Shown here one piece after another: positions 28,238-51,024 of a stretch of 64,000 bases of DNA; position 1 is the first letter of the stretch; every line of letters starts with the position of its first letter. A model generated the notes under the pieces. That model had not been told where the DNA came from. It searched no databases and saw only the letters and a program-made list of their open reading frames with translations. Source of the DNA: Escherichia phage MN01; the sequence record MT129652.1; one strand, given 5' to 3'. A program made the translations under genes and the position numbers.

Positions 28238-30472
28238 ATGATTTTAGAAACTGAAAAGGAAACAATCCTTGGTAATGGTGCCAAGGCATCAGCATTCACA
28301 ATCCAGGCATCTCCAAAGGTGTTTAAGATTCTGACCAGCGACCTTTACACAAATAAGGTGCGTGCAGTTGTTCGTGAGCTGATTACCAATATGATTGATG
28401 CTCATATGCTCAATGGCTGTCAGGATAAATTCATTGTCCAAGCTCCTGGTGAACTGGACCCACGTTTTGTGTGTCGTGACTTTGGTCCGGGTATGAGTGA
28501 TTTCCAGATTCGTGGTGATGAAAATACTCCAGGTCTGTATAACAGTTTCTTTGCATCATCCAAGGCTGAATCCAATGATTTTATTGGTGGCTTTGGTCTG
28601 GGTTCTAAATCTCCGTTCAGTTATACAGAGACGTTTAGCCTGATTTCGTATCATGATGGCCAAGTTAATGGTTATGTCGCTTATATGGATGGCGATGGTC
28701 CACAGATTAAGCCGACCTTTAGCGAACCAATGAAACCCGGTGACCGTACGGGGATTGAAGTTGTTGTCCCGGTTGATAGTAATGATTTTGGTAAGTTCCG
28801 CCACGAGATTTCATATATCATGCGCCCATTTGCTGGACTGGCTGAAGTACAAGGCGTAGGCGAAATTAATTACTTCCCGGAATTTGATGATTATTATGCT
28901 CCAGAGCGTATTGATTATAGCAGCCCAGAACGTTATGGTCTTTATGCAATTTACGGTGGAATTGTTTATCCAATTGCCGACGGTTATACAAAGAAAACCT
29001 GGATGACCGCCAAAAATGATGTTGTCTTTATTAAGTTCCCGATGGGTTCGTTGGATATTGCACCTTCTCGCGAAGCATTATCACTGGATAAACGTACGGT
29101 CGCAAATATCGTTGAACGTATTGAATCCCTTGATAAGAAAGTCATGGAAGATGATTGTAAGAAATGGCAGGAATCAGAATGTATCCGCCACACGTATCGC
29201 GAATTACAGAGTCTGAGTTATGAAGCTCGTAATTTTCTGAAAGCTCGTAATGCTGAAACGAAATTTACGAAATCGCAATTGACCTTTAACCAGATGTATG
29301 AAATGTTCGAGCTGGACAAAGACCTTATTAATGCCGGGGTTGTCTATGATATCTATAGCACTACCCGTCTGAAACGTCTGCGTAACTCAAGCTCGAACAC
29401 GAATACTGCAAGCCTGACGAGCATGTTTGGTATTCAGAATAATACCTTGAACATTGTTATTGACGATGCTAAAGGGCGAATTGCGATGATTCGGGGCATC
29501 AGTTCAATGCTGTATGACACCAGCGCGAAAGCCAAAAAGCTCAAAGCATCTGGTAAAGTCCCGACTGTACAAGGTAGTAGTCTATTGTTCGTTGACCCAA
29601 CCAGCGAAATTCAAACACGTCTGATGGTTCAACTTCAAGAACGATTTAAAGGCGATACAGTTAATATCTATCGTACGTCTGAACTGACCGCCCTTGTAAA
29701 AGACTGGATTCCGGTTGCTGACCCGAAAGCGCGCGTTAAGTCAAAGACTCCATCATTGATTCGTTGGACTAAAACTAATGGCAAATGGCAGTCTGTTGAA
29801 GAATTTACATGTGCAGCTGATGCAGAGGAAATCGATGGTTATGCTGTATTCATTAACCGCAGTAGCATTTCCCCGTTGAATCAAGAATATGGCACCACGA
29901 CCTTCGGGACCCAGACATTGTGTAAACTGGCAAACCTGTTGGAAATCAATGAATTCTGTGTTATTCGTCCACAGCTTCAGAAAAAGGTTACCAAGCTGGC
30001 GCAGTGTGATTGTTTGATTGAAGCTGCAGTCAATCGTTATGTGGAATTGATTGATTCAGTTGATGCGGACCAGTACATTGCCGCTTCAAGCCGTTCGCGT
30101 TATTATATTCCTATCCTGTCTGAATATGCGGAACTGAATTTTATGTTCAAGTATTTTTATGCAAAAGATGTTCAGAAAGATGTGAATACTGACTATGCCG
30201 AACTAATGCAGTTCAATAAGTTCTTTGCTTATAACGCATATAACAGTGGAACGGTTGATAAGACCATGCAGGAAACTCTGGTCCTTTGTAATAAGATTTA
30301 TGACGACCTGACCAAAAACGCTTCGGTAACAAGTGATAAAATGGTTTTTGAATTTGAAAAGAATCACCCGATTGTTTCACACTTTTTATATAACCGTAAC
30401 GCCATGTCAACTGAACAAGTACAGAACGTTGCTCAAATCATGAAGGCCGTGGAAGCGGCCAATAAGGAATAA
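28238..30472 (+). CDS. rIIA: rIIA protein (GHKL-ATPase-like, membrane-associated)
   Basis: 744 aa; N-terminus matches recalled T4 rIIA (TEKETILGNG, VRELITNMIDAH). Confidence 0.9.
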   Translation: MILETEKETILGNGAKASAFTIQASPKVFKILTSDLYTNKVRAVVRELITNMIDAHMLNGCQDKFIVQAPGELDPRFVCRDFGPGMSDFQIRGDENTPGLYNSFFASSKAESNDFIGGFGLGSKSPFSYTETFSLISYHDGQVNGYVAYMDGDGPQIKPTFSEPMKPGDRTGIEVVVPVDSNDFGKFRHEISYIMRPFAGLAEVQGVGEINYFPEFDDYYAPERIDYSSPERYGLYAIYGGIVYPIADGYTKKTWMTAKNDVVFIKFPMGSLDIAPSREALSLDKRTVANIVERIESLDKKVMEDDCKKWQESECIRHTYRELQSLSYEARNFLKARNAETKFTKSQLTFNQMYEMFELDKDLINAGVVYDIYSTTRLKRLRNSSSNTNTASLTSMFGIQNNTLNIVIDDAKGRIAMIRGISSMLYDTSAKAKKLKASGKVPTVQGSSLLFVDPTSEIQTRLMVQLQERFKGDTVNIYRTSELTALVKDWIPVADPKARVKSKTPSLIRWTKTNGKWQSVEEFTCAADAEEIDGYAVFINRSSISPLNQEYGTTTFGTQTLCKLANLLEINEFCVIRPQLQKKVTKLAQCDCLIEAAVNRYVELIDSVDADQYIAASSRSRYYIPILSEYAELNFMFKYFYAKDVQKDVNTDYAELMQFNKFFAYNAYNSGTVDKTMQETLVLCNKIYDDLTKNASVTSDKMVFEFEKNHPIVSHFLYNRNAMSTEQVQNVAQIMKAVEAANKE

Positions 30473-30473
30473 T

Positions 30474-31451
30474 ATGTTTAATATCAAATGTATGTCTAAA
30501 GCCGAACAAGCTGATGTGGTCCAGATGTATTCAACGGGCAATTATACCCAGCCTGAATTGGCAGAATATTTTGCTGTGTCCGTTGACACCATTCGCCGCG
30601 TTTTGAAAAATGATAAAGAATCAAAATTAGCTAGAACCATTTCCGCATCACTGAAAGCAGCTGTTGGTGTGGCGATTAATGCTCCGGTGACAGTAACGGT
30701 TGAAGTCCCGGTTGCTGATACAATCGGCGGTAGCCGCCCGGAAATCGTATGGAACGCATCAAGCAAATTCGTTTCCATCACCGAAGGCCGCACGGTCTGG
30801 AACGCAACAAAAGACCATAAACACTTTGATGATATTATTCAGGCATTGATTGAATTCCGGTATGAAGATGCTATCGAGTTTATCTCTATCAAAGCTGCAG
30901 TGCAAAAATATGTGAAAGGTGATGTGCGTATTGAAGGTGGTAGCCTGTTCTATCAGGGAATTGAACTGCGCTCTGGTTTGGTTACTCGTATCATCGATTC
31001 AATGCAAAATGGCGAAGACTTTGAATTCTATCTGCCATTCCTTGAAAATCTCCTTGAGAACCCGAGTGAGAAAGCTGTACAGCGTTTGTTTGACTTCTTG
31101 GTTGCTAACGATATCGAAATCACCGAAGATGGCCATTTCATCGCCTGGAAAATGGTTCGTTCAACCTACAAAGATTGCCACTCAAATACATTCGACAACA
31201 GCCCTGGTCAATATGTTAAAATGCCGCGCTCTCGTGTGAATGACAATGACGAACAGACCTGTTCAACTGGGCTGCACGTTTGTTCTAAAGGTTATATCGG
31301 AAGTGGCTTTGGTCATGGTGATGGGCGCATCGTATCCTGTAAAGTTCACCCGCGCGATGTTGTAAGCATCCCGGTGGATTATTCCGATAGTAAGATGAGG
31401 GTTTGCGGTTACCTGGTTCTTGAAGATGTGACCGAACGTTTCAATGATTAA
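30474..31451 (+). CDS. rIIB: rIIB protein
   Basis: 325 aa; long blocks match recalled T4 rIIB (GDVRIEGGSLFYQ, FEFYxPFLENLLENPS, VHPRDVVSIP). Confidence 0.88.
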   Translation: MFNIKCMSKAEQADVVQMYSTGNYTQPELAEYFAVSVDTIRRVLKNDKESKLARTISASLKAAVGVAINAPVTVTVEVPVADTIGGSRPEIVWNASSKFVSITEGRTVWNATKDHKHFDDIIQALIEFRYEDAIEFISIKAAVQKYVKGDVRIEGGSLFYQGIELRSGLVTRIIDSMQNGEDFEFYLPFLENLLENPSEKAVQRLFDFLVANDIEITEDGHFIAWKMVRSTYKDCHSNTFDNSPGQYVKMPRSRVNDNDEQTCSTGLHVCSKGYIGSGFGHGDGRIVSCKVHPRDVVSIPVDYSDSKMRVCGYLVLEDVTERFND

Positions 31452-31935
31452 ACAAACAATTGCTAAAGATGGCTCGGCTCGTGGTATTGTCCACGGGCTA
31501 GGTCACACGCCTGAATACATTGTATGGATTGGCATGAAAGCTCGGTGTTGCAATCCAACACATATTAGTTATTCTCGATATGGCGGTCGGGGTATCACTG
31601 TTTGCGATGAATGGCTGCATGATTTTGAAAGATTTTATACAGATATGGGGCCACGACCCACTGACAAACATCAACTTGACCGAACAGATAACGATAAAGG
31701 GTACTCTCCCGATAACTGCAGATGGGTTAGTCCAGGCGAGAATGCTTTAAATAAGCGCCCGTATAATAACAACAAGTCTGGATTTAAAGGAGTCTCGTTT
31801 GATAAACGAGCTTTGAATAAACCATGGCGAGCCACTATTATGCGAAATAAAAAACAAATTCAAGTCGGAGCTTTTGCAACTCCAGAAGAAGCAAATGAAG
31901 CTCGATTAAAATATATGGAAGAACACAATGTCTAA
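31444..31935 (+). CDS. HNH-like/AP2-domain endonuclease (free-standing homing-endonuclease-like gene)
   Basis: 163 aa; YGGRGI.VC..W, LDRxDNDKGYxPDNCRW (HNH_3-like), C-terminal AP2-like SGFKGVSF..WRA; overlaps rIIB stop. Confidence 0.6.
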   Translation: MIKQTIAKDGSARGIVHGLGHTPEYIVWIGMKARCCNPTHISYSRYGGRGITVCDEWLHDFERFYTDMGPRPTDKHQLDRTDNDKGYSPDNCRWVSPGENALNKRPYNNNKSGFKGVSFDKRALNKPWRATIMRNKKQIQVGAFATPEEANEARLKYMEEHNV

Positions 31936-32137
31936 AGAAATGTTAGGTTTCCAAGCACGTGTAGTTGAAGAATATGACCAGCTGGTTTTGAAAATCAATG
32001 CTCTTGAAGAGTTTATCAAGGGTGGAGTTTTTGAAACTCTTGATATCCGTCAACAAGGTCTTTTGATTGCCCAACTGGATGCGATGGGCGCATATGCTCA
32101 TGTACTGGCAATCCGTATCTCTTATTTTGGTGAATAA
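31928..32137 (+). CDS. hypothetical protein
   Basis: 69 aa, helical. Confidence 0.45.
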   Translation: MSKEMLGFQARVVEEYDQLVLKINALEEFIKGGVFETLDIRQQGLLIAQLDAMGAYAHVLAIRISYFGE

Positions 32138-32140
32138 ATT

Positions 32141-32410
32141 ATGATTAAGCATTTCAATGTGTCAGACCGTGACATCAAAGTTTCAAATCTCCGGGGTCAC
32201 CATTATGCAGGAATAGTTTACTGTGGTAAGCTCATCAAGCATGAAGGTGATGTTCACTATGGCTGGTTGGAATGTGATGAAGTAGTTGTTGGGGAATTCC
32301 CTGACCCGGATTCTGATACATTTGATGCTAATGACCGTTTGTACTATGGCGAGCTTCATATCCGGGGAATCGTCGGTATCGATGAGGTAAAAGATGATTC
32401 AGAAGAGTAA
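32141..32410 (+). CDS. hypothetical protein
   Basis: 89 aa, acidic C-terminus. Confidence 0.45.
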   Translation: MIKHFNVSDRDIKVSNLRGHHYAGIVYCGKLIKHEGDVHYGWLECDEVVVGEFPDPDSDTFDANDRLYYGELHIRGIVGIDEVKDDSEE

Positions 32411-32987
32411 AACATGGGAGCATCTGAAAAAGATGCCCTCCTTTCTTTATACAAAAGAAGACTTAACCCCTGAATCTCTACAAAAGATTGTAGACACAGC
32501 CAGGTATTCATTGCGTAAAGACCCAGGTCAAGACCGTGAGCAAGTCATGCAAAGATGTATGGTGGCTACAATGGCCGAACAAGCTATTGCTAAATGGACC
32601 TCCGGCTTTTTATGTGGCGGCGATGAAGATTACGATAATCCTTATTCCTTTGCATTTGATGTAGTTTCGAAGGAAGGAGTAAGAATCGAAGTCAAGACCC
32701 ATCAGTCTGGTTCCAAATGGATATCCGTGCATACTGGCCACCAGGGTGATTATCCACATGGTTACGGGATTAATCTTGGTCCTTTTATGCAGCACAAGCT
32801 TGCCGACCTTATGATTATGCTCGATGTAAAAGAGACTCTCAAAGGTTATAGATTTAAACCAAAATTCCTTGCTGGACCTGGTGCTTTCGTTCCTGAGTCT
32901 GGTCTTGTGCAGAAGTCACAAGGGGATGGCTGGTACCTCCGTTCTTGTTCAGAAGAAAAATTTCCCTATCACCGGTTTACAAGCTGA
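32394..32987 (+). CDS. hypothetical protein with PD-(D/E)xK-like motif (possible nuclease)
   Basis: 197 aa; AFDVV...RIEVKT resembles D...(D/E)xK core; near where T4 has denB; unverified. Confidence 0.5.
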   Translation: MIQKSKTWEHLKKMPSFLYTKEDLTPESLQKIVDTARYSLRKDPGQDREQVMQRCMVATMAEQAIAKWTSGFLCGGDEDYDNPYSFAFDVVSKEGVRIEVKTHQSGSKWISVHTGHQGDYPHGYGINLGPFMQHKLADLMIMLDVKETLKGYRFKPKFLAGPGAFVPESGLVQKSQGDGWYLRSCSEEKFPYHRFTS

Positions 32988-33004
32988 ACCAACCATGTAA
33001 TAAT
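32976..33004 (+). promoter_or_regulatory. early promoter (GTTTACA type)
   Basis: GTTTACA, 17 bp, AATAAT with TG two bases upstream. Confidence 0.45.
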
Positions 33005-33032
33005 GTCCTCACACCAACAAATGAGGACATTA
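33001..33032 (+). promoter_or_regulatory. perfect 11-bp stem hairpin sequestering the SD of ORF 33035
   Basis: TAATGTCCTCA-(10 nt loop)-TGAGGACATTA; GAGGA SD lies in the 3-prime arm, ATG 3 nt downstream. Confidence 0.6.
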
Positions 33033-33034
33033 TC

Positions 33035-33310
33035 ATGGAACAAGTTACTACTCAAAACATCAAACAAATTCTTATTCAAGCACTCAAAAACAACAACATC
33101 AATTTTCCAACCCATGAAATTTTTGATGTGGTATTCAACGAAGTCCAGGGTCAAGTTGCATATTATGACGTTATCATTTATCTTTCAGAATTTGAAGTCT
33201 ACCACCTGACTGAAATCGCTTTCTATCTCTATCGTGGGACTGCAGATTTTACCGGGGTCGTGAATGCAGTTGGTGCATATAAAGAAGTTAAAGAACAAAT
33301 GCACAATTAA
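33035..33310 (+). CDS. hypothetical protein
   Basis: 91 aa from ATG just after a perfect 11-bp hairpin covering the SD. Confidence 0.5.
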   Translation: MEQVTTQNIKQILIQALKNNNINFPTHEIFDVVFNEVQGQVAYYDVIIYLSEFEVYHLTEIAFYLYRGTADFTGVVNAVGAYKEVKEQMHN

Positions 33311-33321
33311 TTAAAAAGTAG

Positions 33322-33350
33322 TGTACATCAGTATGGAGTCTATGTATAAT
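33322..33350 (+). promoter_or_regulatory. early promoter cassette
   Basis: AAAAGTAGTGTACA, 17 bp, TATAAT; leader CCATACTGAGTTACCAAA. Confidence 0.55.
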
Positions 33351-33386
33351 GATTCCATACTGAGTTACCAAATACTGGAGAATAAA

Positions 33387-33542
33387 ATGAAACCTGCTCA
33401 ATATGCAATGACTTTATACCTTGAAGTTAATGGCGATATTACTGAATTTTTTAAATTAATGCAACAGCGCGGAAAAAGTTTTGCAGTTACTGAGCGTCAA
33501 TTTTACGCGTGTCGCAAAAATACATACAATCGTTATGCATGA
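33387..33542 (+). CDS. small hypothetical protein (51 aa)
   Basis: SD GGAG; promoter cassette upstream; track ORF 33321 trimmed. Confidence 0.4.
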   Translation: MKPAQYAMTLYLEVNGDITEFFKLMQQRGKSFAVTERQFYACRKNTYNRYA

Positions 33543-33552
33543 GGAAAATAAA

Positions 33553-33813
33553 ATGGATATCAAATTATATTACGCTAAACACAAAGTTACAGGTAAAGTT
33601 GTTGCTGCTATGTACGATGCATCAGGTGAAGATGTTACTACGGAATTATCCCTTTCTAATTGTAGATTTCTTCGTCCTTTGCTAGCGTCAAAAAAAGATT
33701 TACAAAAACTTATCGACGGTAAATTAGATAATGTCGATGGTATAGATATTCATTATGAACTCCGCCATGCACTGACTGATGGGTTTATGGAAATAAAAGA
33801 GATAGTATTATGA
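33553..33813 (+). CDS. hypothetical protein
   Basis: 86 aa from SD-preceded ATG. Confidence 0.5.
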   Translation: MDIKLYYAKHKVTGKVVAAMYDASGEDVTTELSLSNCRFLRPLLASKKDLQKLIDGKLDNVDGIDIHYELRHALTDGFMEIKEIVL

Positions 33814-33904
33814 GTAGCAAAACTTGGTGCCTTATCTGGATATTGTGTATCCCAGTAATTTGCGTTTGTTTTAGTTTATTATTAATGAAACTTGCATAAA
33901 AGAG

Positions 33905-33955
33905 TATACATCTCCAGTGGTTGTAGTATAATGAACCTATCAACTACTGGAGATG
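33905..33955 (+). promoter_or_regulatory. early promoter cassette with 10-bp inverted repeat
   Basis: TATACA, about 16 bp, TATAAT; CATCTCCAGT...ACTGGAGATG brackets -10 and leader. Confidence 0.4.
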
Positions 33956-33958
33956 ATT

Positions 33959-34075
33959 ATGAAAAAGTTACTTAAAGCCATTTGGAACATGTTTGTACTG
34001 TTTGTTGTCCTGAGCATTTTCCCAATTGTTTTTATGATTGACCATGTACGTGTTTACTTTAACTATTTCTTTTGA
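33959..34075 (+). CDS. small membrane peptide (38 aa)
   Basis: SD GGAG; hydrophobic; promoter cassette upstream; not in ORF track. Confidence 0.3.
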   Translation: MKKLLKAIWNMFVLFVVLSIFPIVFMIDHVRVYFNYFF

Positions 34076-34085
34076 GGATAATATT

Positions 34086-34232
34086 ATGATAGTTATGAAA
34101 AAGTTTAAAGAATATCATTGCTATGAATGTGGCAAAAAGATTGATTCTATTCATTCATTAAGCGTCTTTTCTTTTGATAATTTAAACTATGCACACATTT
34201 GGTGCCTTCGTGGAATGACTAAATTTAACTGA
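34086..34232 (+). CDS. small Cys/His protein (48 aa)
   Basis: CYECGKK ... HIWC pattern suggests a small zinc finger; SD GAGGA. Confidence 0.35.
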   Translation: MIVMKKFKEYHCYECGKKIDSIHSLSVFSFDNLNYAHIWCLRGMTKFN

Positions 34233-34242
34233 GGATAATATT

Positions 34243-34449
34243 ATGAATTACAATTCACAATTTCAGAAATCCAATCGTCGCTTTGACTTTATGTTCAAGT
34301 TTATCATGGCGATGATTATCCTGATTTTCATTGGTGCCATTGCAATGATTGGTTTCCAGCTCTGGATTGCTGCTGAAGTGTTCACACAAATCCAGGATAA
34401 TGGTTTGAAGTCTGTTGTTGATGTAATTTGGAATGGAGCTAAGCAATGA
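34243..34449 (+). CDS. small membrane protein
   Basis: 68 aa with long hydrophobic helix; SD GAGGA. Confidence 0.45.
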   Translation: MNYNSQFQKSNRRFDFMFKFIMAMIILIFIGAIAMIGFQLWIAAEVFTQIQDNGLKSVVDVIWNGAKQ

Positions 34450-34691
34450 AACTTTTTAAAGACATTGCAGTTGGTGAAAAATTTGTCCTGGGTAATGGTC
34501 AACAACTGATTCGCATTTCGCCTTTGATGGATAACAGCGAGCGCCCTGTGCGCACTGAAAACTGTTTGGATTATCCTTTTTATCAGAAGCGTTTTGCAAT
34601 TGAAAATAATACTGAGTGCTTCACAGTTGATGAACTGATGGAATCATCAGAAGAAGTTGACTTGTGGGATGGCGCAGTTGATGTAGAATAG
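34446..34691 (+). CDS. hypothetical protein
   Basis: 81 aa; ATGA coupling. Confidence 0.45.
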   Translation: MKLFKDIAVGEKFVLGNGQQLIRISPLMDNSERPVRTENCLDYPFYQKRFAIENNTECFTVDELMESSEEVDLWDGAVDVE

Positions 34692-34720
34692 TGTACAAAC
34701 TTTTGGGAGCAGAGTATAAT
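34692..34720 (+). promoter_or_regulatory. early promoter cassette
   Basis: TAGTGTACA, 17 bp, TATAAT; TGGGA...TCCCA inverted repeat. Confidence 0.55.
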
Positions 34721-34759
34721 GTTCCCAGTGGATAATAAAATTTAGCTGAGGAAATCATT

Positions 34760-35104
34760 ATGTCTAAAGTATTTTTTGGTAATCGCAACATTATGTTCTT
34801 TAAACAGATTAGCGTATCAGAAGCATTTGATTTAAGTTATTCAGGCGGTACAAAAGCTGTTAACCTTAAAAATTTGATGTCTGCAGAATTTGCATTCTAT
34901 CAGGACCCTGAAACTGGTTTCTACAAATTTATTAAGTTCCGCATGACTATGGACCGCGATTATCGTGATGTTTATTATACAAGTTATGAAAGTGTTATCA
35001 ATGCAATTCGTGAAGCTTATGGATTGGATTCGTTGTCGCTTGACCGCCTGTATAATGCAAGCCTTTACACCAGTGGATTTATTTTAGAACAGCTTCAAAA
35101 ATAG
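34760..35104 (+). CDS. hypothetical protein
   Basis: 114 aa; promoter cassette upstream. Confidence 0.5.
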   Translation: MSKVFFGNRNIMFFKQISVSEAFDLSYSGGTKAVNLKNLMSAEFAFYQDPETGFYKFIKFRMTMDRDYRDVYYTSYESVINAIREAYGLDSLSLDRLYNASLYTSGFILEQLQK

Positions 35105-35138
35105 TGTACAAACTCTTGGGGTCTGAGTATAATGACCC
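35105..35138 (+). promoter_or_regulatory. early promoter cassette
   Basis: TAGTGTACA, 17 bp, TATAAT; TGGGGTC...GACCCCA nearly identical to the 23467 cassette. Confidence 0.55.
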
Positions 35139-35177
35139 CACTGGAGCACAAAACTTTAACTTACTGAGGAAATTAAT

Positions 35178-35627
35178 ATGAATACTTACATGACCCGTCG
35201 TGACGTACTGAATGCTGGCGCTACTACTGTTGCTTATATCCATAATGGTAATTATGTTGCAGGTCGCCCGACTAAAGAAGCTATCACTCAACCAGGTTTT
35301 TATTTCGTGGTTAAAGGTGAAGGTGAATCACGTATTGTTGCCGCACGTTTTTATGTTGGTAACCAACGTTCACAACAAGGGTTTGACACTGTATTAAGTC
35401 ACATCCGCAAACAGCGTTCGCAACTGTCTCGCACAATGGCGAACAATGGGGTTATCTATGAAGTCCTGTTTGTCCCAGTTTCTAAAATGAAACCTCTGAC
35501 AACTGGTTATGGTAAAGGTCAAATTGCGATGGCGTTCACTCGCTCACATAGTTCTGATTGCCAGACCCTTTCAGAAATGAATCGCATGCTTGCTGATAAC
35601 TTTAAATTCATTCTGCAGAGTTATTAA
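35178..35627 (+). CDS. ndd: nucleoid disruption protein Ndd-like
   Basis: 149 aa (T4 Ndd 151); [29 protein letters not shown] resemble recalled T4 Ndd; between rIIB and 52. Confidence 0.55.
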
Positions 35628-35716
35628 TATGAGTAATTTCCATAATGAACACGTGATGCAATGGCATCGTCATAATCTGAAATTAACTGGCGTCTTTGGA
35701 CGCCCTTGAGGAAAAT

Positions 35717-35869
35717 ATGAAATTTGTTCATGGCGTAGCTTTTTTCTGTTGGTCATTTTTATTTGTTGGAACATTAATAACTGGAGAAACTTCAGTATTT
35801 CTGCAGTCAACAGCTCAAGGTGTATTAGCGACTTTAACACTATTTAAATTATTGGATAAAAATGATTAA
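35717..35869 (+). CDS. small membrane protein (50 aa), possible Ac-like
   Basis: Hydrophobic; T4 has the 51-aa membrane protein ac beside gene 52; not in ORF track. Confidence 0.35.
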   Translation: MKFVHGVAFFCWSFLFVGTLITGETSVFLQSTAQGVLATLTLFKLLDKND

Positions 35870-36002
35870 GAAAATCCTGGGCTACTCGTTAGCCCTTGCT
35901 GCCTTATTGGTGGCACTGTATTATGGAGTTGTGTTTGCATTAGTGCAGGTTGTGCTTTTTATTTCTGATGCTATAATGGCAGTACATTCGTTAATCTGGT
36001 AA
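35862..36002 (+). CDS. small membrane protein (46 aa)
   Basis: Hydrophobic; overlaps previous ORF end; just upstream of gene 52. Confidence 0.3.
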   Translation: MIKKILGYSLALAALLVALYYGVVFALVQVVLFISDAIMAVHSLIW

Positions 36003-36010
36003 GGTGATAT

Positions 36011-37390
36011 ATGTCTGACGTTTTAAGTATGATGTCCAAACAGTTCAGTGATTCTATGGGGACCCTTAACCCACGCAGTTTAAAAGACATTATTGATGTG
36101 GAAGCATTGTCATATGCTATCTACACTGTGGAAGGTCGTGCCATCCCAAACATGATTGATGGTTTTAAACCAGTTCACAGATTTGTTATGGCGAGAGCAT
36201 TAGACCTGGCTCGCGGTGATAAGAATAAATTCCATAAGGTTGCATCCATCGCAGGGGGCGTAGCTGATTATGGTTATCACCATGGCGAAGCATCAGCGGA
36301 AGAAGCAACTTCTGGTCTGGTCGCAACATATAAAAATGAATATCCTATGTTTGATGGGCAAGGTAACTTTGGTTCCAGAATGGTTCCAGAAGCATCATCA
36401 GCTCGTTATGTATTCGCAAGGGTTTCAAAGAACTTTTACAACCTGTTTAAGGATACAGAATATGCTCCGGTCCATCCTGATGAAGAACATAAGCCTCCTG
36501 CTTTTTATCTTCCTGTTATTCCTACTGTATTACTTAACGCCACTTCTGGGATTGCTGTTGGCTTTGCTACTGATATCCTTCCTCATTCGTTCCAGGACGT
36601 CAAGGAAGCTGTTAAAGCTATCGTGGAAGGTCGTGAGCCGGTTGCTCCGAAAGTAAAATATCCAGAATTCCGTGGTAAAGTTGTTGAGCTGGAAGAGCCC
36701 GGTAAGTATGAACTTCATGGCACGTACAAAATGACCTCCAGGACTCAAATGGAAATTACTGAAATCCCAGTTCAATGGAACCTGGAAAAGTATACAAGTA
36801 AAATCCTGGACCCGCTGGAAGAGAAAGGTTTTATCACCTGGAAAGATAACTGCGGCGAGCATGGTTTTGGGTTTAAGATTAAATTCCGCAAAGAATACAA
36901 GTTGGATGGCACTGAAGAAGAGAATCATGAGAAAATCATGAAAGACTTTGGTCTGATTGAGAAGCTCTCCCAGAACTTAACTGTGCTTAACCACAAAGGC
37001 AAATTGGCTGAATATACCAACACGCTTGACCTGATTCGCGATTTCGTTGATGTCCGTAAGACTTATGTTCAAGTGCGAATTGACAGTAAGATTAAAGAAA
37101 CTGAAGCGGCATTTAAACTGGCCCGGGCAAAAGTCTTCTTTATTAAAGAAGTGATTGATGGTAAGGTTGTTATCCAGGGGAAACCTCGTAAGAAGTTGAT
37201 TGAGGAGCTCCAGGCGAGTGAAATATATGGCGATTATGCAGAGAAGTTAGTGGCGATGAACATCTACCATATGACCTCTGATGAAGCTAAGAAGCTTGCG
37301 GATGAAGCTAAGGCTAAGAAAGCTGAGCATGAGTACTGGAAGACAACTGACGTTAAAACTGAATACCTTAATGATTTGGAGGCTCTATGA
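36011..37390 (+). CDS. 52: DNA topoisomerase II medium subunit gp52 (GyrA-like)
   Basis: 459 aa (T4 gp52 about 440); GyrA-like N-terminus IPNMIDGFKPVHR; synteny. Confidence 0.9.
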   Translation: MSDVLSMMSKQFSDSMGTLNPRSLKDIIDVEALSYAIYTVEGRAIPNMIDGFKPVHRFVMARALDLARGDKNKFHKVASIAGGVADYGYHHGEASAEEATSGLVATYKNEYPMFDGQGNFGSRMVPEASSARYVFARVSKNFYNLFKDTEYAPVHPDEEHKPPAFYLPVIPTVLLNATSGIAVGFATDILPHSFQDVKEAVKAIVEGREPVAPKVKYPEFRGKVVELEEPGKYELHGTYKMTSRTQMEITEIPVQWNLEKYTSKILDPLEEKGFITWKDNCGEHGFGFKIKFRKEYKLDGTEEENHEKIMKDFGLIEKLSQNLTVLNHKGKLAEYTNTLDLIRDFVDVRKTYVQVRIDSKIKETEAAFKLARAKVFFIKEVIDGKVVIQGKPRKKLIEELQASEIYGDYAEKLVAMNIYHMTSDEAKKLADEAKAKKAEHEYWKTTDVKTEYLNDLEAL

Positions 37391-45145: not shown

Positions 45146-45793
45146 TTAATAATATCCAAAATCTTGTACGGAGTCTTTAAGAACGATTTGGTCAAAACGA
45201 GGCACATGGGCCGGGTCTGATGCTGGGTTCCTAGAGAAGAAATTAGGTGCTGACAAGTTACCTGTCATTGTTTGCAATGTACTATTATTTAGTTCCACTT
45301 GTTGTTGGTTGGTTACATTACCAAGACCGACTTGAGCTTTTGATGGAGTGTTCCCTGGAGAAAATACACGACCTGTTTCATCATAAATGTGACGAGCTAA
45401 CGTATCACCCATAACAGTAAGACGTTTTGCTCCTGTCGTAGTGTCAGGGTCAAAAATAACAAATGGTGTTCCTGTTTCAGTCTCAAATCCAAACGGTCCT
45501 TTAATACGGAAAGATGCTGTAAATGGTGCTCCACCTGTTCTCGCTCCCAACTTAATCCCGTAACCATTTGAATCGTTAAATGTCAGGCCTTGTTCGAAAT
45601 ACACATTTGCTTTATAATTACCACCCAGAGCTTTAGAAACAAAATCGTTATCGACTGCTTGTGGCTTGTTATATTCGGAATAAATTTTATAAGTTTTGAA
45701 ATATAAGTCATTGCTGACTGGTGTTAATGGGAAATTACCCTGGTGCCAGAGGACCGAACCTCCGGCTGTTGAGCCTAGTTTTAAATCTGCCAT
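45146..45793 (-). CDS. 36: long tail fibre hinge/distal connector gp36
   Basis: 215 aa (T4 gp36 221), between 35 and 37; TATAAATA upstream. Confidence 0.7.
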   Translation of the reverse strand: MADLKLGSTAGGSVLWHQGNFPLTPVSNDLYFKTYKIYSEYNKPQAVDNDFVSKALGGNYKANVYFEQGLTFNDSNGYGIKLGARTGGAPFTASFRIKGPFGFETETGTPFVIFDPDTTTGAKRLTVMGDTLARHIYDETGRVFSPGNTPSKAQVGLGNVTNQQQVELNNSTLQTMTGNLSAPNFFSRNPASDPAHVPRFDQIVLKDSVQDFGYY

Positions 45794-45828
45794 TTATAAG
45801 TCCTCTTCAACCGGCATATGATATTTTG

Positions 45829-45836
45829 TATTTATA
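45829..45836 (-). promoter_or_regulatory. late promoter (TATAAATA) for gene 36-37-38 transcript
   Basis: Minus-strand TATAAATA between gene 35 terminator and gene 36 start. Confidence 0.5.
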
Positions 45837-45840
45837 ACGA

Positions 45841-45862
45841 AAAAAGGACTCCGAAGAGTCCT
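45841..45862 (-). terminator. rho-independent terminator after gene 35 (minus strand)
   Basis: On minus strand AGGACTC-ttcg-GAGTCCT followed by TTTTT; overlaps gene 35 stop. Confidence 0.6.
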
Positions 45863-46991
45863 ATTGTTTTTCTCGTAGTTCGGCTGCGTATATCTTGCCG
45901 GCTCTCGGAGCTTGTGCATCTGGGAATGTTACAATTGTATTACCTGTATTTGTTGCATCGTTTGCATATGACATCCTTATGCCGTTGACACCAAATTCAG
46001 CTGGTTTGAATGCCGAGTCGCCTCTGGTTATCTCACCAATAACAATATTACGTATTGACCCTGTTCCAGTAGCTACAGTTCTTGATGTTACTACCGTAAA
46101 GCCATCAGCTCCCGCTGGAATCTCGACATATCTTTCGAAACTCGCCCAAGCCCCGGCTGGAACGTTTGCTGCAATATCGATGTTTGTATTTGATATTGGA
46201 GCAGTGCTAGGGCTTTTAAAGAATCGAACCGAAGTCCTTACAGTTCCGGCGGCTTTCAGTTCTGCGTCAAATGACATCTGAAACTTCAAGTAAAGCACAT
46301 CCAAAGGTAAAAGGTTATAGGTATCCATAGGAGTCACCAGGTCCTCTGTGGGAAACCTTTTAATTGTGGTTGGTGTTCCATCACCTGTTGATGAATACGT
46401 GCTCTCGTCTTCCGTTATGCGCACAGGATAGCCTGTTGCCCCTATATCACTAAAGGTATCATAAACGACTTCAAGCGGAGTCGAAACATCCTCAACTAAC
46501 TTCCCGTCATTATACTTAACATGCTCCGAAACAATTACGTTCCTGCCGGTTATGTAAAAAGCCGAGTACGATGTATCAACTTTATCAATCAACCATTTCT
46601 CTGGGAATGCTCTTGAACCACATTTACGGAACCAGTCAATTAATGTCTGTGATGCATTTAGTTTCCCAGAAGAAATAAAAGCAATCAATCTTCCAGCTGG
46701 TACAGATTCCACAAAGGTGATTAATGCCTGACTGATTACATCGTGTGAGCTAGTTAATGAATAGTTTTTTGTGTTAACAATTTTATTCGTAGTTGTATCA
46801 ATTTCTAATAGAGTCAAACCATTACCAAAAGTAGTTGGTCCGATTCGTTCATCCTGGAATTTGATATACGATTTCACCGTGGAAAGAGTACAGCTCCCTG
46901 CTATACTCATTTTAAATTTAACGGCATTATTTTCTGATATAACTGGCGTTTGGACATATCCTTGTCCAAACTCTGCCATAAATTTTTCCAT
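45861..46991 (-). CDS. 35: long tail fibre hinge gp35
   Basis: 376 aa (T4 gp35 372), between 34 and 36. Confidence 0.7.
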   Translation of the reverse strand: MEKFMAEFGQGYVQTPVISENNAVKFKMSIAGSCTLSTVKSYIKFQDERIGPTTFGNGLTLLEIDTTTNKIVNTKNYSLTSSHDVISQALITFVESVPAGRLIAFISSGKLNASQTLIDWFRKCGSRAFPEKWLIDKVDTSYSAFYITGRNVIVSEHVKYNDGKLVEDVSTPLEVVYDTFSDIGATGYPVRITEDESTYSSTGDGTPTTIKRFPTEDLVTPMDTYNLLPLDVLYLKFQMSFDAELKAAGTVRTSVRFFKSPSTAPISNTNIDIAANVPAGAWASFERYVEIPAGADGFTVVTSRTVATGTGSIRNIVIGEITRGDSAFKPAEFGVNGIRMSYANDATNTGNTIVTFPDAQAPRAGKIYAAELREKQ

Positions 46992-46999
46992 ATTACCTC

Positions 47000-49900
47000 T
47001 TATTCAATCCATTCAAACTTAACGGATTTAGTGGTCGGGTCTGGGATGATACGTACGTTACCGATACGTAACCAATCGAGAATGGTTAAGTTCCCCATCG
47101 TTGTGTTGTCAGCCGGTAATGCACCAACATCCTCTGCAGACGGAGGGTTATCCGCGGTGTAAACCATTGCGAAAGTCGTCCATGCGGATTTATTTTTCTG
47201 CCATGTACGAGTATAACGAATAGTACCACCGTTCAATCCAGTTGGATAGCAAACCCAATCTTGATAACATGAATCCAGCGTATTACCAAACTGAGTCAAT
47301 GTACCAGGATATTTAATTTGTTTGTCACGAACTGAATAGTCAAACCATGTTCCGCGTAGTTTCTGTCCAGAGCTACCTAATACTTCATCACCAAGTGTAC
47401 CATCATCATTACGATAACGAATAGCAGGCGAGGCGAAAGTTCCGTTTTCAGTTAACCAACCAGAAGCATTCCAAACTTCATCAGTTACCCCAGCAGGTTT
47501 AGTTTGAACCGTATCAATGTTTACTTGACGTTTTAACTTCATTGTCCAATAACCAGGGAACTGGCTATAAGTCGCTTCATCATTGATATCGACAGACCAG
47601 AAGCCAACAGTATCAGCAGTCGGAGCTTGTGCAATAAGACTCGGTTTCGTACCAAATACACGGACCGGAGCATTCACACGGAGTACACCAGACATTGTAT
47701 CACCAGCCTGGTTAACAAAGTTTCTATCAACAATTTCTACTGCGTTTTTCTCGGTCAGAACTTTAAATGCACCGCCACCATTTGCTATGATATTGCCAGC
47801 ATCAAGAGTTTTGAGCACTAAATTCTGTGAGTTATCACCCAGAGACAAAGTTGCGCCAGAAGCTTCACCTGTTGTGGTTGCAATAGTACGACCATTTAGA
47901 ACGTAATTATTTTTGGCTTGAACATCGTTTCCGGCGCTGAGGTTGTTCAATACAGCAACATTACCCGAGGCGGTGTTTAATGTCAATACGTTAGTCGTAT
48001 CGCCGATAGTCATTGTCGTTCCAGTGGAAGGAGCAGTGATTTTCCACTTGTTAGTTCCGTTAACAACATTCACAGTCCCGAACGTCGAAGTGCCAGCCGT
48101 TACATCAGTAAACACTGCAGTGCTCGTCGATACAACCGGAGCAGAGATATTTGTCTGTTTAGTGAGAGTTAATGCACCTTCAACAGTCTGGGCAATATCA
48201 CGACGAATAAATTGGGTCGAATCGAGACTATCAAGTTTTTCAGCATTAACAGCCATCGCATTTATCGGTAAGAAGTTTTGCAATACGCGGTTTAATTCGT
48301 AAGGCGAAACTGCATATCCAGATTTTGCATAGCTAACCAGTTTACTTGGGTCCGGAGTATACACACCATTTGCATATGTAAATCCTGCACCTGTCGTTGT
48401 AGTTGCGGCCGAAGTAGCTGCACCAGAAGATAAACGAACAAATCCTCGCAGTGTTTCAGATGATTCCCAGGTGGTTTCCGTTTGTGCAATATATTTCAGC
48501 GCAGACGGACTAATGGCCAAGACTTTTGATGTACCAGCGGTTGCTTCGGCGTTTGTCGCAATGCGAACAATACCTTCGGCATTTTCAGTAGCTTTTTTCG
48601 ACATCAATTTAAGCGGGGTAACGATTGTTTTATCGTCAGTGCCGGTATTGACTTCGCCCTGAGTTGCTAATCTTGCTGTACCACGTTGAGTCTCATTTGC
48701 TTCAAGAATATTCAGGCTATAATGGTCCCAGAGCGTCCCTGTTTCTACTAAACCACTTAATGCATTAACAGAAGTACGAGCAGTATTATTAAATCTATTT
48801 TTAATTTTTAATGGAGTTGAGATACGAGTATCATCAGTTCCAGTATCAAATTCTGATTGCGTAGCAATCTCGGCTATGCCGGATAATGTTTCTGATGCTT
48901 TACGGTCATTTAACGTTTTAGGAGTTACAGCTCTGGTATAATCAGTTCCTGCATTTGTTTCCGCCTGAGTAGCAATCTCGATTAAACCAATACGGGAATC
49001 AAGAGCAGTTTTGCGATGCAACATTTCTGGAGTAACGACTGCGTTTGCCCAGTCAGATTGAGAAGTACCGGCGATTACTTCACTTTCAACCGCAAGAATA
49101 ACCGCGCCTTGCTGAGTGTAAGTAGCTTTGTACTGGTCAAGAGCTTTCGGAGAAACAACCAGATTAACCGTATTTTTATTATAAACGTTTGTACCATTTA
49201 ATTCACGCGAAGCAGCAGGAGTTGCACCAGTCGTTGAAACGTAAGTTACAATGCCGGATAGCGATTCTGAACCCTGACGAGCTTGCAGTTTCTTTGGAGT
49301 TATAATTGTGGTATCATCTACACCTGCATCAGTTTCTTGCTGTGTGGCGAGTTCTGCGAGCCCACGTCTCGTTTCTGTTGCCGTACGTTCATTGAGTTTT
49401 TTCGGAGAAATAATTACATCATCAACAAATGCAAAATCACTGTTCTGATTTACTTGGGCAGTCGTTGCGATTCTGGCAATGCCTCGTTGGTTCTCTTTAG
49501 CAACACGGTTGGCTAAAGTCTGAGGGGTAATTGCGAGTTCTTTCTCTGGGTTATTTTCATGGTCAACGTTTGCCTGAGTCTGGTTTGCCAGAGCAATAAC
49601 ACCAAGACGTGCACGCGTGGAATCATTTAATGAGTCAACTCGTTCGACAGTCGGAACGTTCTGAGCGACAACCCAATAACTTTTTCCAGATACTTTATCT
49701 TCTGCATATGACAATTCAATAACCGGAGTATAACTGATATTACCGTTAAAGGTCAATGAATCAACCAACACCCAAGTTGTATCCGGTGGATACTCGGAAC
49801 GTTTAGGGAATTGCAGTAATTTAATGTCAGATGCAATCTTATCGCCAACAGCAGCTCTTATATTAACAGTCTGTGATTTACGGAGATAGTTCAGTGCAAT

Positions 49901-50956: not shown

Positions 50957-50987
50957 GTGCTTTATCCTTATTGATTTGGTATATGTG

Positions 50988-50995
50988 TATTTATA
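50988..50995 (-). promoter_or_regulatory. late promoter (TATAAATA) for gene 34-35
   Basis: Minus-strand TATAAATA about 32 bp upstream of gene 34 ATG. Confidence 0.5.
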
Positions 50996-51024
50996 TTGCT
51001 TTAAAAATTTTATGCTAATATAAT
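50996..51024 (+). promoter_or_regulatory. sigma70/middle-type promoter for rnh
   Basis: TTGCTTTAA, 17 bp, TATAAT upstream of rnh; divergent from gene 34 late promoter. Confidence 0.4.

Follow-up and report, generated by a model that had tools for sequence, protein, structure and literature searches.

The rIIB–ndd interval of Escherichia phage MN01: a probable Gaprivervirus version of hyperplastic region D

Background

All T-even-type phages carry a 'region D', which extends from rIIB to gene 52. In T4 this region (denB.1, denB, ndd.6–ndd.1, ndd, stp, ac and 52.1) is non-essential and can be deleted (PMC12115623). DenB degrades host dC-DNA, and both its function and its functionally important residues have been described (PMC1635256, PMC2175332, PMC12916289). 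The family PF21825, which includes the 64-amino-acid T4 member (Y16O/DenB.1), sequesters 3'cADPR and blocks type I Thoeris (2025; bioRxiv 10.1101/2025.07.12.664507).

The promoter cassettes known as PeSLs have been defined together with subclasses that include a 'stem-loop overlapping the -10 box' (Arbiol et al., 2010; PMC2839356), and crossovers have been measured between the -10 box, the Shine–Dalgarno sequence (SD) and the ATG (PMC2839356). At the locus considered here, a PeSL-mediated ndd.4/ndd.5 exchange has been described between T4 and PST (PMC4122927).

Gene content of the interval

The window (the whole stretch of 64,000 nucleotides analysed from Escherichia phage MN01) belongs to a Gaprivervirus, with 93–96% nucleotide identity to deposited genomes over 62–90% of the segment at 31444–35177. 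In our view this segment is very probably what region D, non-essential and hyperplastic, looks like in a VR7/SP18-like Gaprivervirus. The rIIB stop is at 31451 and the ndd start at 35178, and the segment indeed holds 13 ORFs (the earlier note had counted about 13), all on the forward strand and with plausible starts.

rIIB, 30474–31451, + strand: left border; 325 amino acids, 61% identical to T4 RIIB, full length
o01, 31444–31935, + strand: free-standing HNH/AP2-type endonuclease, facultative (mobile) insertion
o02, 31928–32137, + strand: DenB.1 orthologue, Pfam PF21825 ('Sequestin' 3'cADPR sponge family)
o03, 32141–32410, + strand: DUF7418 protein (PF24193, E 3.4e-33)
o04, 32394–32987, + strand: DenB, endonuclease IV (dC-specific ssDNA endonuclease; PHROG 1360, E 3.4e-80, full length)
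o05, 33035–33310, + strand: 91 amino acids, Gaprivervirus-restricted (PHROG 17571, E 2.8e-59)
o06, 33387–33542, + strand: 51-amino-acid facultative cassette ORF
o07, 33553–33813, + strand: 86 amino acids (PHROG 2390, E 1.3e-34)
o07b, 33810–33899, + strand: 29-amino-acid hydrophobic peptide, Ndd.6 orthologue (46% identical to T4 Ndd.6 over 28 residues)
o08, 33953–34075, + strand: 38–40-amino-acid membrane peptide, Ndd.4 orthologue (61% identical to T4 Ndd.4 over 36 residues)
o09, 34086–34232, + strand: 48-amino-acid CxxC...HxxC protein, facultative (PHROG 25572, E 1.5e-31)
o10, 34243–34449, + strand: 68-amino-acid membrane protein, DUF7248 (PF23906, E 6.5e-25)
o11, 34446–34691, + strand: Ndd.1 orthologue (51% identical to T4 Ndd.1 over 72 residues; PHROG 2183)
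o12, 34760–35104, + strand: 114 amino acids, narrow T4-like-phage family, between two paralogous PeSLs
ndd, 35178–35627, + strand: right border, nucleoid disruption protein (PF06591, E 1e-68; 61% identical to T4 Ndd)
stp orthologue, 35629–35709, + strand: 26 amino acids, just beyond the segment (translation set against T4 Stp)

The Ndd and Stp genes lie directly downstream of the interval.

Position, orientation and gene order are like those of T4 region D. The earlier note had held that the T4 interval contains essentially only denB and that no ORF matches a known T4 protein. Neither statement is correct, as the T4 record has nine ORFs in 1.9 kb (denB.1, denB, ndd.6, ndd.5, ndd.4, ndd.3, ndd.2a, ndd.2 and ndd.1), and six of the 13 found in this phage are orthologous to T4 proteins and colinear with them (DenB.1, DenB, Ndd.6, Ndd.4, Ndd.2a and Ndd.1; 45–61% identity). 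Orthologues of T4 Ndd and Stp are also retained beside these six, whereas ndd.2, ndd.3 and ndd.5 are lacking. As a set, then, the genes are no orphans relative to T4; the other seven (o01, o03, o05, o06, o07, o09 and o12) have no homologue among the T4 proteins and are extra here. The 'expansion' is modest. Every other sampled genome has a shorter interval than the 3726 bp here: 12 Gaprivervirus-type relatives span 2808–3535 bp, and Dhakavirus MX01 and T4 have 2295 and 1936 bp, respectively.

Assignment of o01 to the HNH endonucleases, as claimed earlier, is supported by PHROG 374 (E 8e-59) and 15 more HNH families, with the Pfam AP2 match (21.9 bits) below its cut-off of 33.3. Among T4-type records the gene is found only in DCP80, TH54, VR7, phage 212, where it is in two pieces and probably decayed, and Morganella phage MP1 (70% identity), where it is likewise adjacent to rIIB. 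The inserted segment is 31438–31939, and the insertion has changed the last bases of rIIB, in which homology to relatives without the HNH gene ends at 31437. We suggest that the arrival of this gene was a separate event, in which a free-standing endonuclease of the homing type inserted just after rIIB.

The o02 product matches PF21825 with E 6.9e-19 and 67.9 bits (cut-off 24.8) and is 51% identical to T4 DenB.1, which itself belongs to PF21825 and is encoded at the same locus. The Arg/Glu/Gln/Arg positions reported to contact the ligand are kept, R11/E15/Q49/R63 aligning with T4 DenB.1 R7/E11/Q45/R59 (an alignment made via T4 DenB.1, not via the published SequestinA/B sequences). In relatives the start is the ATG at 31940; compared with the T4 member, o02 may have a four-residue N-terminal extension made by the HNH insertion. 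Given the activity known for T4 DenB.1, o02 would form a dimeric sponge that takes up 3'cADPR, the signal of Thoeris. The 'PD-(D/E)xK-motif protein' of the earlier note is DenB itself (o04), which is 46% identical to T4 DenB over 178 residues and conserves the equivalents of G71, S176, G180 and W181. It is predicted to cut dC-containing single-stranded host DNA.

The remaining products are small. Three are strongly hydrophobic, in agreement with the membrane peptides noted earlier, and o07b, o08 and o10 would insert in the inner membrane. The start of o07b, which has a Kyte–Doolittle 19-residue maximum of 2.89, overlaps the o07 stop (ATGA), and the C-terminal 42 residues of o10 are the orthologue of T4 Ndd.2a (45% identical), also a DUF7248 protein. 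The small Cys/His protein of the earlier note corresponds to o09, for which zinc-ribbon matches were weak and sub-threshold. Matches in Pfam, PHROG and NCBIfam gave no annotated function for o03, o05, o06, o07, o09 or o12; o05 has no match in Pfam, NCBIfam or the PDB, and o06 has no family match in Pfam, PHROGs or NCBIfam. Structure prediction on two ORFs yielded no usable model, and the AlphaFold model of o11 has a pLDDT of 45.

Promoter cassettes

The core TACA-N16/17-TATAAT occurs eight times in the window, where 0.58 copies are expected (14-fold over shuffles). All eight are on the + strand, and four lie within 33324–35133. Five early-promoter cassettes, where at least five had been proposed earlier, are recognizable in the interval as predicted promoters, four with strong consensus matches (P33322, P33905, P34692 and P35105) and one, P32976, weaker.

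P32976, 32976–33031, + strand: weaker promoter-like site TTTACA-N17-TG-AATAAT, then a 9-bp hairpin holding the o05 SD (z -3.2)
P33322, 33311–33386, + strand: PeSL-type; AT-rich leader, TGTACA-N17-TATAAT, 13-bp hairpin over the -10 box, then SD
P33905, 33893–33952, + strand: PeSL-type; TATACA-N16-TATAAT in a 15–18-bp hairpin, o08 SD in the 3' arm
P34692, 34681–34759, + strand: PeSL-type; paralogue of the ndd cassette (57-nt direct repeat, 81% identical to 35100–35156; family D2)
P35105, 35094–35177, + strand: PeSL-type, serves ndd; near-identical copy at 23467

The P33322 cassette (hairpin z -3.5, 0/200 shuffles) belongs to repeat family D1 and has a paralogous copy at 18986; P33905 (hairpin dG -13.7, z -4.9) has a paralogous 3' half at 10802. 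The hairpin on the P35105 -10 box is kept in Dhakavirus and in the paralogues by compensatory changes, with 100% of cells paired and four of the seven pairs changed on both sides.

These cassettes resemble published PeSLs (PMC2839356, PMC4122927) in their AT-rich leader, sigma-70-like -35/N17/-10 elements, -10-overlapping stem-loop, SD and ATG, as well as in clustering in the hyperplastic region, flanking differential ORFs and having crossover points in the -10-to-ATG stretch. They differ in the -35 hexamer, which is TGTACA here compared with TTGACA (RB49) and TTTACW (T4/PST), and in their partly A/T-containing stems, compared with polyG/polyC. Judged by sequence and by analogy with RB49/phi1 and T4/PST, each PeSL would direct early transcription by the host sigma-70 RNA polymerase, and its hairpin may attenuate or insulate read-through.

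Thermodynamic folding models suggest an additional role for two of the hairpins. The probability that the SD is unpaired is 0.02 in the read-through RNA and 0.59 in the own-promoter transcript for P32976, and 0.00 and 0.70, respectively, for P33905, so that in the o05 and o08 cassettes the hairpin may mask the ribosome-binding site, and would do so only in RNA that reads through. In T4, ribosome-binding-site-sequestering hairpins of genes e, soc, 49 and I-TevI control translation from late versus early transcripts. The modelled arrangement for o05 and o08 is similar, with the promoter in or just before a hairpin that carries the SD in its 3' arm, but the internal promoter is of the early sigma-70 type here and late in T4.

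Variation among relatives

A presence/absence matrix of 13 relatives and T4 was compiled. Nine to ten of the 13 ORFs recur in all sampled Gaprivervirus relatives, including o08, whereas the HNH gene, o06, o09 and o10 are facultative; universal conservation of the gene set, which the earlier note had named as an argument against its own reading, was therefore found in part. Every ORF is present at 93–100% identity in at least one deposited Gaprivervirus record, and the deposits (VR7, SP18, VR20/25/26, UPEC01, EAWsc9 and others) already annotate the genes, with denB, denB.1, ndd.4, ndd.3 and ndd.1 among them. No single record examined combines the HNH gene, o06 and o09 in this arrangement, and the mosaic here is the largest sampled.

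The ORFs differ widely in distribution. While o03 occurs in 673 phage records and o07 in 662 from throughout the Tevenvirinae, most of which have it at the same place on the map (T4 itself lacks o07), o05 is limited to 34 phage records, all with at least 92% identity. The o03 slot of VR26, VR20, EAWsc9, YenP8 and M719 holds a second DUF7418 allele (106 residues, 29% identity), o07 has several alleles among close relatives (41–98%) and o11 has two (at least 89% and about 51–55%). Fifteen Gaprivervirus records have o06 at 98–100% identity; it is missing from VR7, SP18, VR25, VR20 and P479, and VR26 and phage 212 have other ORFs in its place. Only 13 records have o09, with VR26 and DCP80 at 98–100%, and o10 is missing from phage 212, P479, fDHCT2 and MX01. 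Homologues of o06 in four unrelated 46–48 kb coliphages (53%), and of o09 in Klebsiella and Edwardsiella T4-likes, RaK2, 71-kb coliphages and a Pseudomonas phage (48–60%), suggest that both were horizontally acquired.

Breakpoints relative to these genomes are at 31437/31940, 33389/33550, 34089/34230 and 34681/34746. The boundaries of indels and allele swaps lie on repeated regulatory sequence, either a PeSL of ~50–85 bp or a 17-nt SD/ATG repeat at the PeSL 3' end. The clearest layout is that of the o09 cassette.

o09 cassette, 34073–34246, + strand: between perfect 17-nt direct repeats TGAGGATAATATTATGA at 34073–34089 and 34230–34246

The TGAGGATAATATTATGA repeats (family D4) have a spacing of 157 nt, and relatives without o09 have a single copy, with breakpoints at 34089/34230. 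Similarly, o12 is flanked by 57-nt, 81%-identical promoter cassettes; P34692 is missing from VR7, VR25 and VR20, and an extra ORF takes its place in EAWsc9 and M719. The o06 breakpoints fall inside the repeated AATAAAATG SD-ATG motif, but only about 6–9 nt of sequence are shared at this junction, which could also fit illegitimate recombination. By analogy with RB49/phi1 and T4/PST, homologous recombination at PeSL/SD-ATG repeats would account for the gain, loss and exchange of cassettes, as in the published PeSL model. We take this to be the shuffling mechanism that Arbiol, Comeau and Krisch described for the same locus.

Alternative interpretations

Read strictly, the earlier note describes an expanded island that is specific to this lineage, made up of orphan early genes without T4 counterpart and probably devoted mainly to new anti-defence or takeover functions. 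Consistent with this are the seven ORFs without T4 homologue, six of which (all but o01) lack an annotated function, the length of the interval, and the deep divergence of the o12 and DUF7418 alleles in otherwise near-identical genomes, a pattern frequent in host-interaction genes. However, a core of nine to ten ORFs recurs in every close relative sampled, o03 and o07 each occur in more than 660 Tevenvirinae-type records, and the sole member of a demonstrated anti-defence family, o02, is common to T4. We consider this reading unlikely, and in its strict form it is refuted by the nine ORFs of T4 and the six colinear T4 orthologues.

The variability could also come mainly from homing-endonuclease double-strand breaks with co-conversion of flanking markers, the second source of plasticity according to Comeau et al. 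(PMC4122927), instead of PeSL/SD-ATG recombination. The HNH gene at the left edge is sporadic in relatives, occupies the same site in the Morganella phage and sits in a mosaic, with rIIB closest to UPEC01 (98%) and the HNH gene to VR7 (99%). Relatives without it, the majority, nevertheless share the cassette polymorphisms 2–3.5 kb away, with boundaries on direct repeats, and no endonuclease gene adjoins o06, o09, o10 or o12, which makes this explanation improbable. Less probable still is that o06, o07b, o08 and o09 are chance reading frames in AT-rich DNA between promoters. They have only 29–51 codons, belong to the section with the highest A+T content (GC 0.30–0.34) and, for o06, lack a family match, but the protein identities of o07b and o08 to T4 Ndd.6 and Ndd.4 and of o06 and o09 to proteins of unrelated phages (48–59%) argue against this, GGAG/GAGGA stands at a suitable distance upstream of each, and the ORF limits coincide exactly with the cassette boundaries.

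Conclusions

The rIIB–ndd segment is real, but it is a hyperplastic region of an ordinary kind that has been described before, and not a gene island unknown in T4; both the locus and the shuffling mechanism have been published, including an example at the same ndd.4/ndd.5 site (PMC4122927). The most consistent interpretation is of a backbone probably shared with T4 by inheritance (denB.1, denB, ndd.6, ndd.4, ndd.2a and ndd.1, then ndd and stp), with lineage-specific small genes (o03, o05, o07 and o12) between the backbone genes and three or four facultative cassettes (the HNH endonuclease, o06, o09 and o10) added on top. The anti-defence reading is backed for one gene only, o02. The general idea survives that host takeover and counter-defence are served here by small early genes, each promoted individually, in a locus that varies; DenB, DenB.1/Sequestin and, downstream, Ndd and Stp bear it out, and the seven functionally unassigned products may, as a class, be accessory host-interaction factors.

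Gene content and comparison with T4

The stretch from the rIIB stop to the ndd start contains 13 forward-strand ORFs with plausible starts (o01–o12 and o07b), in agreement with the figure of about 13 in the earlier note; the HNH protein, the Cys/His protein and the membrane peptides that it described are likewise all real. Nucleotide identity of the segment to Gaprivervirus phages of Escherichia, Shigella and Yersinia (VR7, SP18, VR20, VR25, VR26, UPEC01 and others; 84 records matched) is 93–96%.

ORFs of the interval and flanking genes (window positions; identities are to the T4 protein)
28238–30472, rIIA, flanking gene
30474–31451, rIIB, flanking gene
31444–31935, +, o01, putative HNH/AP2-type endonuclease (PHROG 374)
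31928–32137, +, o02, T4 DenB.1 orthologue (51% over 63 aa), PF21825
32141–32410, +, o03, Pfam DUF7418
32394–32987, +, o04, predicted DenB, endonuclease IV (PHROG 1360; 46% over 178 aa)
33035–33310, +, o05, found in Gaprivervirus records only
33387–33542, +, o06, facultative
33553–33813, +, o07, PHROG 2390
33810–33899, +, o07b, T4 Ndd.6 orthologue (46% over 28 aa)
33953–34075, +, o08, T4 Ndd.4 orthologue (61% over 36 aa)
34086–34232, +, o09, facultative, 48 codons
34243–34449, +, o10, C-terminus orthologous to T4 Ndd.2a (45% over 42 aa; Pfam DUF7248 in both)
34446–34691, +, o11, T4 Ndd.1 orthologue (51% over 72 aa)
34760–35104, +, o12, 114 aa
35178–35627, ndd, flanking gene (Pfam Phage_T4_Ndd, E 1e-68)
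35629–35709, stp orthologue, 26 codons, beginning 2 nt past the ndd stop
36011–37390, topoisomerase gene 52, flanking gene

The stp orthologue is unannotated in most relatives, VR25 excepted. In T4, Stp is the activator of the host PrrC anticodon nuclease.

The interval had been described as an island of orphan genes, with essentially only denB in the corresponding part of T4 and no ORF matching a known T4 protein. Neither statement is correct. The T4 record carries nine ORFs in the 1.9 kb from rIIB to ndd (denB.1, denB, ndd.6, ndd.5, ndd.4, ndd.3, ndd.2a, ndd.2 and ndd.1), and direct comparison with the T4 proteins indicates six orthologues among the window ORFs, in T4 order (o02, o04, o07b, o08, the C-terminus of o10, and o11). 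In the same comparison o01, o03, o05, o06, o07, o09 and o12 had no T4 counterpart. The interval is an ordinary hyperplastic region D (in T4, rIIB to gene 52) of a T-even-type phage. Its sequence and annotation were already available from close relatives, and the mechanism of its plasticity has been published for the same locus.

Variability among relatives

The interval was fetched from 13 relatives and from T4, and the ORFs were compared by tblastn. The earlier note had called the locus variable, which is true of part of the gene set: the HNH gene, o06, o09 and o10 are facultative, while nine ORFs (denB.1, DUF7418, denB, o05, o07, ndd.6, ndd.4, ndd.1 and o12) are present in all sampled Gaprivervirus-type relatives. 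Within the sample the HNH gene is found in VR7 and phage 212 (TH54 and DCP80 were added by a record search), o06 in four of the 13 relatives and o09 in VR26 only; o10 is missing in four. At 3726 bp the interval is longer here than in T4 (1936 bp), Dhakavirus MX01 (2295 bp) or the Gaprivervirus-type relatives (2808–3535 bp). The co-occurrence of the HNH gene, o06 and o09 makes the window's mosaic larger than any other in the sample, and each of its components has a 93–100% identical counterpart in some deposited genome.

The shared ORFs vary in sequence. DUF7418 exists as two alleles of only 29% identity, the 106-aa form, labelled YopX in one record, also being DUF7418; o07 has several alleles (41–98% identity), and ndd.1 and o12 have two each among the relatives sampled. 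Their distribution across deposited sequences is equally uneven, with o03 in 673 phage records, o07 in 662 Tevenvirinae-type records (mostly at the same map position), o12 in 92 (essentially all Gaprivervirus and Dhakavirus), o05 in 34 (exclusively Gaprivervirus), o06 in 19 and o09 in 13. The sole record with the HNH gene, o06 and o09 all present is DCP80, but there they lie in differing places. We note that in this record (PQ671644.1, 141 kb; 45500–51500) pieces of the region are scattered and the o09 area runs into an exonuclease (gene 47-like) gene, which suggests that the record is rearranged or misassembled; it was therefore left out as a reference.

Breakpoints in blastn comparisons with relatives place the HNH segment at 31438–31939, between the last rIIB codons and the denB.1 start. 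The o01 product strongly matches PHROG families that carry an HNH-endonuclease annotation (PHROG 374, E 8e-59); no Pfam HNH model matched at E 0.1, the sole Pfam appearance being AP2, below its cut-off, and an NCBIfam scan returned no HNH match. The gene is sporadic, occurring in four Gaprivervirus-type phages (DCP80, TH54, VR7 and phage 212), and in phage 212 it is broken into two pieces. Morganella phage MP1 (NC_031020.1, 161501–161989) carries a 70%-identical HNH copy overlapping the rIIB 3' end; since this distant T4-like phage uses the same site, the insertion site appears to be conserved across genera. Sporadic occurrence, one fixed site and a split copy form the pattern expected of a putative free-standing homing-type endonuclease.

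DenB and the Sequestin orthologue

The protein previously described as carrying a PD-(D/E)xK motif and having no T4 match is o04, which we identify as DenB because direct comparison shows its orthology to T4 DenB. It matches PHROG 1360 over its full length (residues 1–196, E 3.4e-80). Pairwise alignment shows that T4 DenB positions Ser176, G71, G180 and W181 are all kept in o04 (TSGF, KSQGDGWYL); Ser176 matters in T4/T2 DenB (PMC2175332), and G71, G180 and W181 are sites mutated in retron-Eco2 escapers (PMC12916289). Judged from its sequence, o04 is DenB, endonuclease IV, and would belong to the class of enzyme responsible for dC-specific cleavage of single-stranded DNA.

The neighbouring o02 matches Pfam PF21825 with E 6.9e-19 and 67.9 bits (cut-off 24.8; residues 8–65 of 69); on this model T4 DenB.1 (64 aa) obtains 68.6 bits. 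This family was named "Sequestin" in a 2025 preprint, which describes an antiparallel homodimer with two inter-protomer pockets that binds 3'cADPR and cancels type I Thoeris (10.1101/2025.07.12.664507). According to the same preprint, ten of 13 members tested block type I Thoeris via 3'cADPR sequestration, a 64-aa T4 member, "Y16O", turns a Thoeris-sensitive phage resistant, and the ligand contacts are R8/E12/Q47/R61 in SequestinA and R7/E11/Q45/R59 in SequestinB. We infer that Y16O is T4 DenB.1 because the two agree in length (64 aa), in PF21825 membership and in their location by denB and rIIB. T4 DenB.1 has R7, E11, Q45 and R59, and in the pairwise alignment their o02 counterparts are R11, E15, Q49 and R63; the correspondence of o02 to the SequestinA/B columns comes from the identical numbering of T4 DenB.1, to which o02 was aligned. 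As a PF21825 member and a stand-alone protein within about 60–80 aa, o02 has the sequence characteristics of a Sequestin and is probably an anti-Thoeris sponge of this family. The expectation that the locus would hold host-takeover and counter-defence genes is thus satisfied in part, by DenB (o04) and the Sequestin orthologue (o02).

Promoter-early stem-loop cassettes

A consensus scan located five promoter-like sites, at 32976, 33322, 33905, 34692 and 35105, which bears out the count of at least five early-promoter cassettes in the earlier note. The site at 32976 reads TTTACA-N17-AATAAT with TG upstream; the other four read TGTACA/TATACA-N16-17-TATAAT, each preceded by the AT-rich AAAAAGTAG or AAAAATAG. 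The core TACA-N16/17-TATAAT occurs eight times in the 64-kb window, compared with 0.58 expected from shuffles, always on the + strand, and four of the eight matches lie within 33324–35133. The cassettes consist of an AT-rich leader, the -35 and -10 hexamers separated by 16–17 nt, a stem-loop with the -10 box as its loop and then a Shine–Dalgarno (SD) sequence and ATG. The stems around the -10 box are of 7–18 bp, with z scores of -3.5 and -4.9 in two cassettes and weaker values of -1.5 and -1.6 in two others.

These are the parts of the promoter-early stem-loop (PeSL) as defined by Arbiol et al. 2010 (PMC2839356), for which "overlapping the -10 box" is among the commonest stem-loop positions. 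The cassettes share with that definition the σ70-like hexamers at about 17-nt spacing, the AT-rich stretch and the stem-loop over the -10, as well as the hyperplastic setting in which neighbouring ORFs differ between relatives and crossovers fall inside the cassette. PeSLs were reported to have promoter and terminator activity, with mini-circle crossovers between the -10 box, SD and ATG (Arbiol et al. 2010, PMC2839356), and were later extended to T4/PST with the ndd.4/ndd.5 exchange, at this same locus, as an example (Comeau et al. 2014, PMC4122927). On these sequence features we class the window cassettes as PeSLs.

The hairpin was further investigated in an alignment of eight ndd-type cassette copies, both orthologous and paralogous (Gaprivervirus, Dhakavirus MX01, fDHCT2, and the o12 and 23467 paralogues). 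Standard pairs occupy each of the 54 pair cells (100%), compared with 37–56% when the partner columns are slid, and four of the seven stem pairs are compensatory, being altered on both sides, within an alignment that contains only about three independent stem types. The 7-bp ndd stem (window 35117–35140) is rebuilt with different bases in MX01 (3171–3220), in fDHCT2 (6281–6330) and in the paralogous cassettes. Retention of the stem through compensatory changes implies that the -10-box hairpin is under selection as a structure and not just as a promoter. No Rfam RNA family was found in 30400–36100.

In the o05 and o08 cassettes (33003–33031 and 33909–33955) the SD lies inside the 3' arm of the hairpin. 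Its unpaired probability in a modelled read-through RNA is 0.02 for o05 and 0.00 for o08, and rises to 0.59 and 0.70, respectively, in a transcript begun 7 nt past the -10 box of the cassette itself; in the same RNA model this switch is absent from the other three cassettes. Such masking would limit the translation of o05 and o08 to promoter-proximal transcripts. It resembles a known device of T4 by which the ribosome-binding sites (RBS) of several genes (e, soc, 49 and I-TevI among them) are hidden in read-through RNA.

Outside the interval, the window has further copies of these cassette subfamilies at 10802, 18986, 23467 and 39956. We note another type of cassette at 10785–10835. Its terminator hairpin is rich in G+C (GGGGC-TTACA-GCCCC, then TTTTT), the loop contains the -35 hexamer, and TATAAT comes next; it belongs to the PeSL subclass whose stem-loop overlaps the -35.

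Boundaries of exchanged segments

The blastn breakpoints against relatives coincide with repeated regulatory sequence. The o06 segment (33390–33549) has both edges inside the motif AATAAAATG, which comprises the SD spacer and start codon, and in VR26 and phage 212 its slot is occupied by other ORFs. Perfect 17-nt direct repeats, TGAGGATAATATTATGA, containing a stop codon, SD and ATG, flank o09 at 34073–34089 and 34230–34246; relatives lacking o09 have one copy. Gain or loss of the cassette has left a very clear trace here. Related RBS/ATG motif copies (families D4 and D5) lie upstream of o12 and ndd, where allele-swap boundaries are also found. Fixed directly upstream of ndd, o12 is flanked by two paralogous PeSLs (57 nt, 81% identity; 34687 and 35100), the left of which is missing in VR7, VR25 and VR20 and gives way to an extra ORF in EAWsc9 and M719.

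Candidate effectors

Searches for function yielded little. NCBIfam and PADLOC gave no meaningful matches for any ORF, and a sequence search of the PDB with o05, o07, o11 and o12 found nothing below E 0.2. Structure prediction, proposed in the earlier note, was carried out on o12 and o11 and gave no usable model; for o11 (AlphaFold2, nine sequences) the pLDDT was 45. A homologue search for o07, o11 and o12 recovered only 5–11 close relatives each, sets that are too shallow for good models.

The record of EAWsc9 (PQ341120.1, 2702–5713) labels ORFs of this region as MafI immunity, KTSC, DUF2829/Tad2-like, COesterase and YopX. Pfam searches taken as far as E 5 bore out none of these labels, and the 'YopX' ORF is really the second DUF7418 allele; the product names appear to be over-annotations. 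As the labels were not reproduced by Pfam, a Tad2-like reading of Ndd.1 was abandoned. All of the o11/Ndd.1 homologues (P0017–P0026) bear the precomputed Pfam accession PF26909.1, an entry that the Pfam copy used here did not contain, and the family seems to have been given this entry recently.

An exhaustive HMM profile search placed the o12 family in only about five sequence clusters among 1.8 billion proteins; a 482-aa match to the profile was rejected as spurious, being a tail-fibre-like DPDTGxY repeat protein. The two o12 alleles are approximately 55–60% identical and are swapped between genomes that are otherwise at least 95% identical. Compared with EAWsc9 and two further relatives' loci (L012 and L005), alleles of both o12 (34760–35104) and DUF7418 (32141–32410; 29%) are exchanged among genomes with 95–99% identical flanks. 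Because such deeply diverged alleles swap between near-identical genomes, o12 is the best candidate for a host-interaction effector and the two-allele DUF7418 protein the second. It is possible, although we regard it as rather doubtful, that at least one lineage-specific product serves in anti-defence or host takeover as a so far uncharacterised effector kept under diversifying selection and that the PeSL and SD–ATG repeats form a dedicated allele-exchange device.

As a discovery the interval matters little, since the literature and GenBank already cover the locus, its shuffling mechanism and most of its genes; its practical value is a corrected annotation. DUF7418, o05, o07, Ndd.1 and o12 are a reasonable set of conserved small proteins for anti-defence screening, and o09, with its exact repeats, and o12, with its paralogous PeSLs, are natural substrates suited to testing the PeSL mini-circle model. 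The interval also contains DenB, a trigger of retron Eco2 that in addition lowers transduction, and a probable Sequestin sponge; both are relevant to the host range of Gaprivervirus phages and to their use in therapy.
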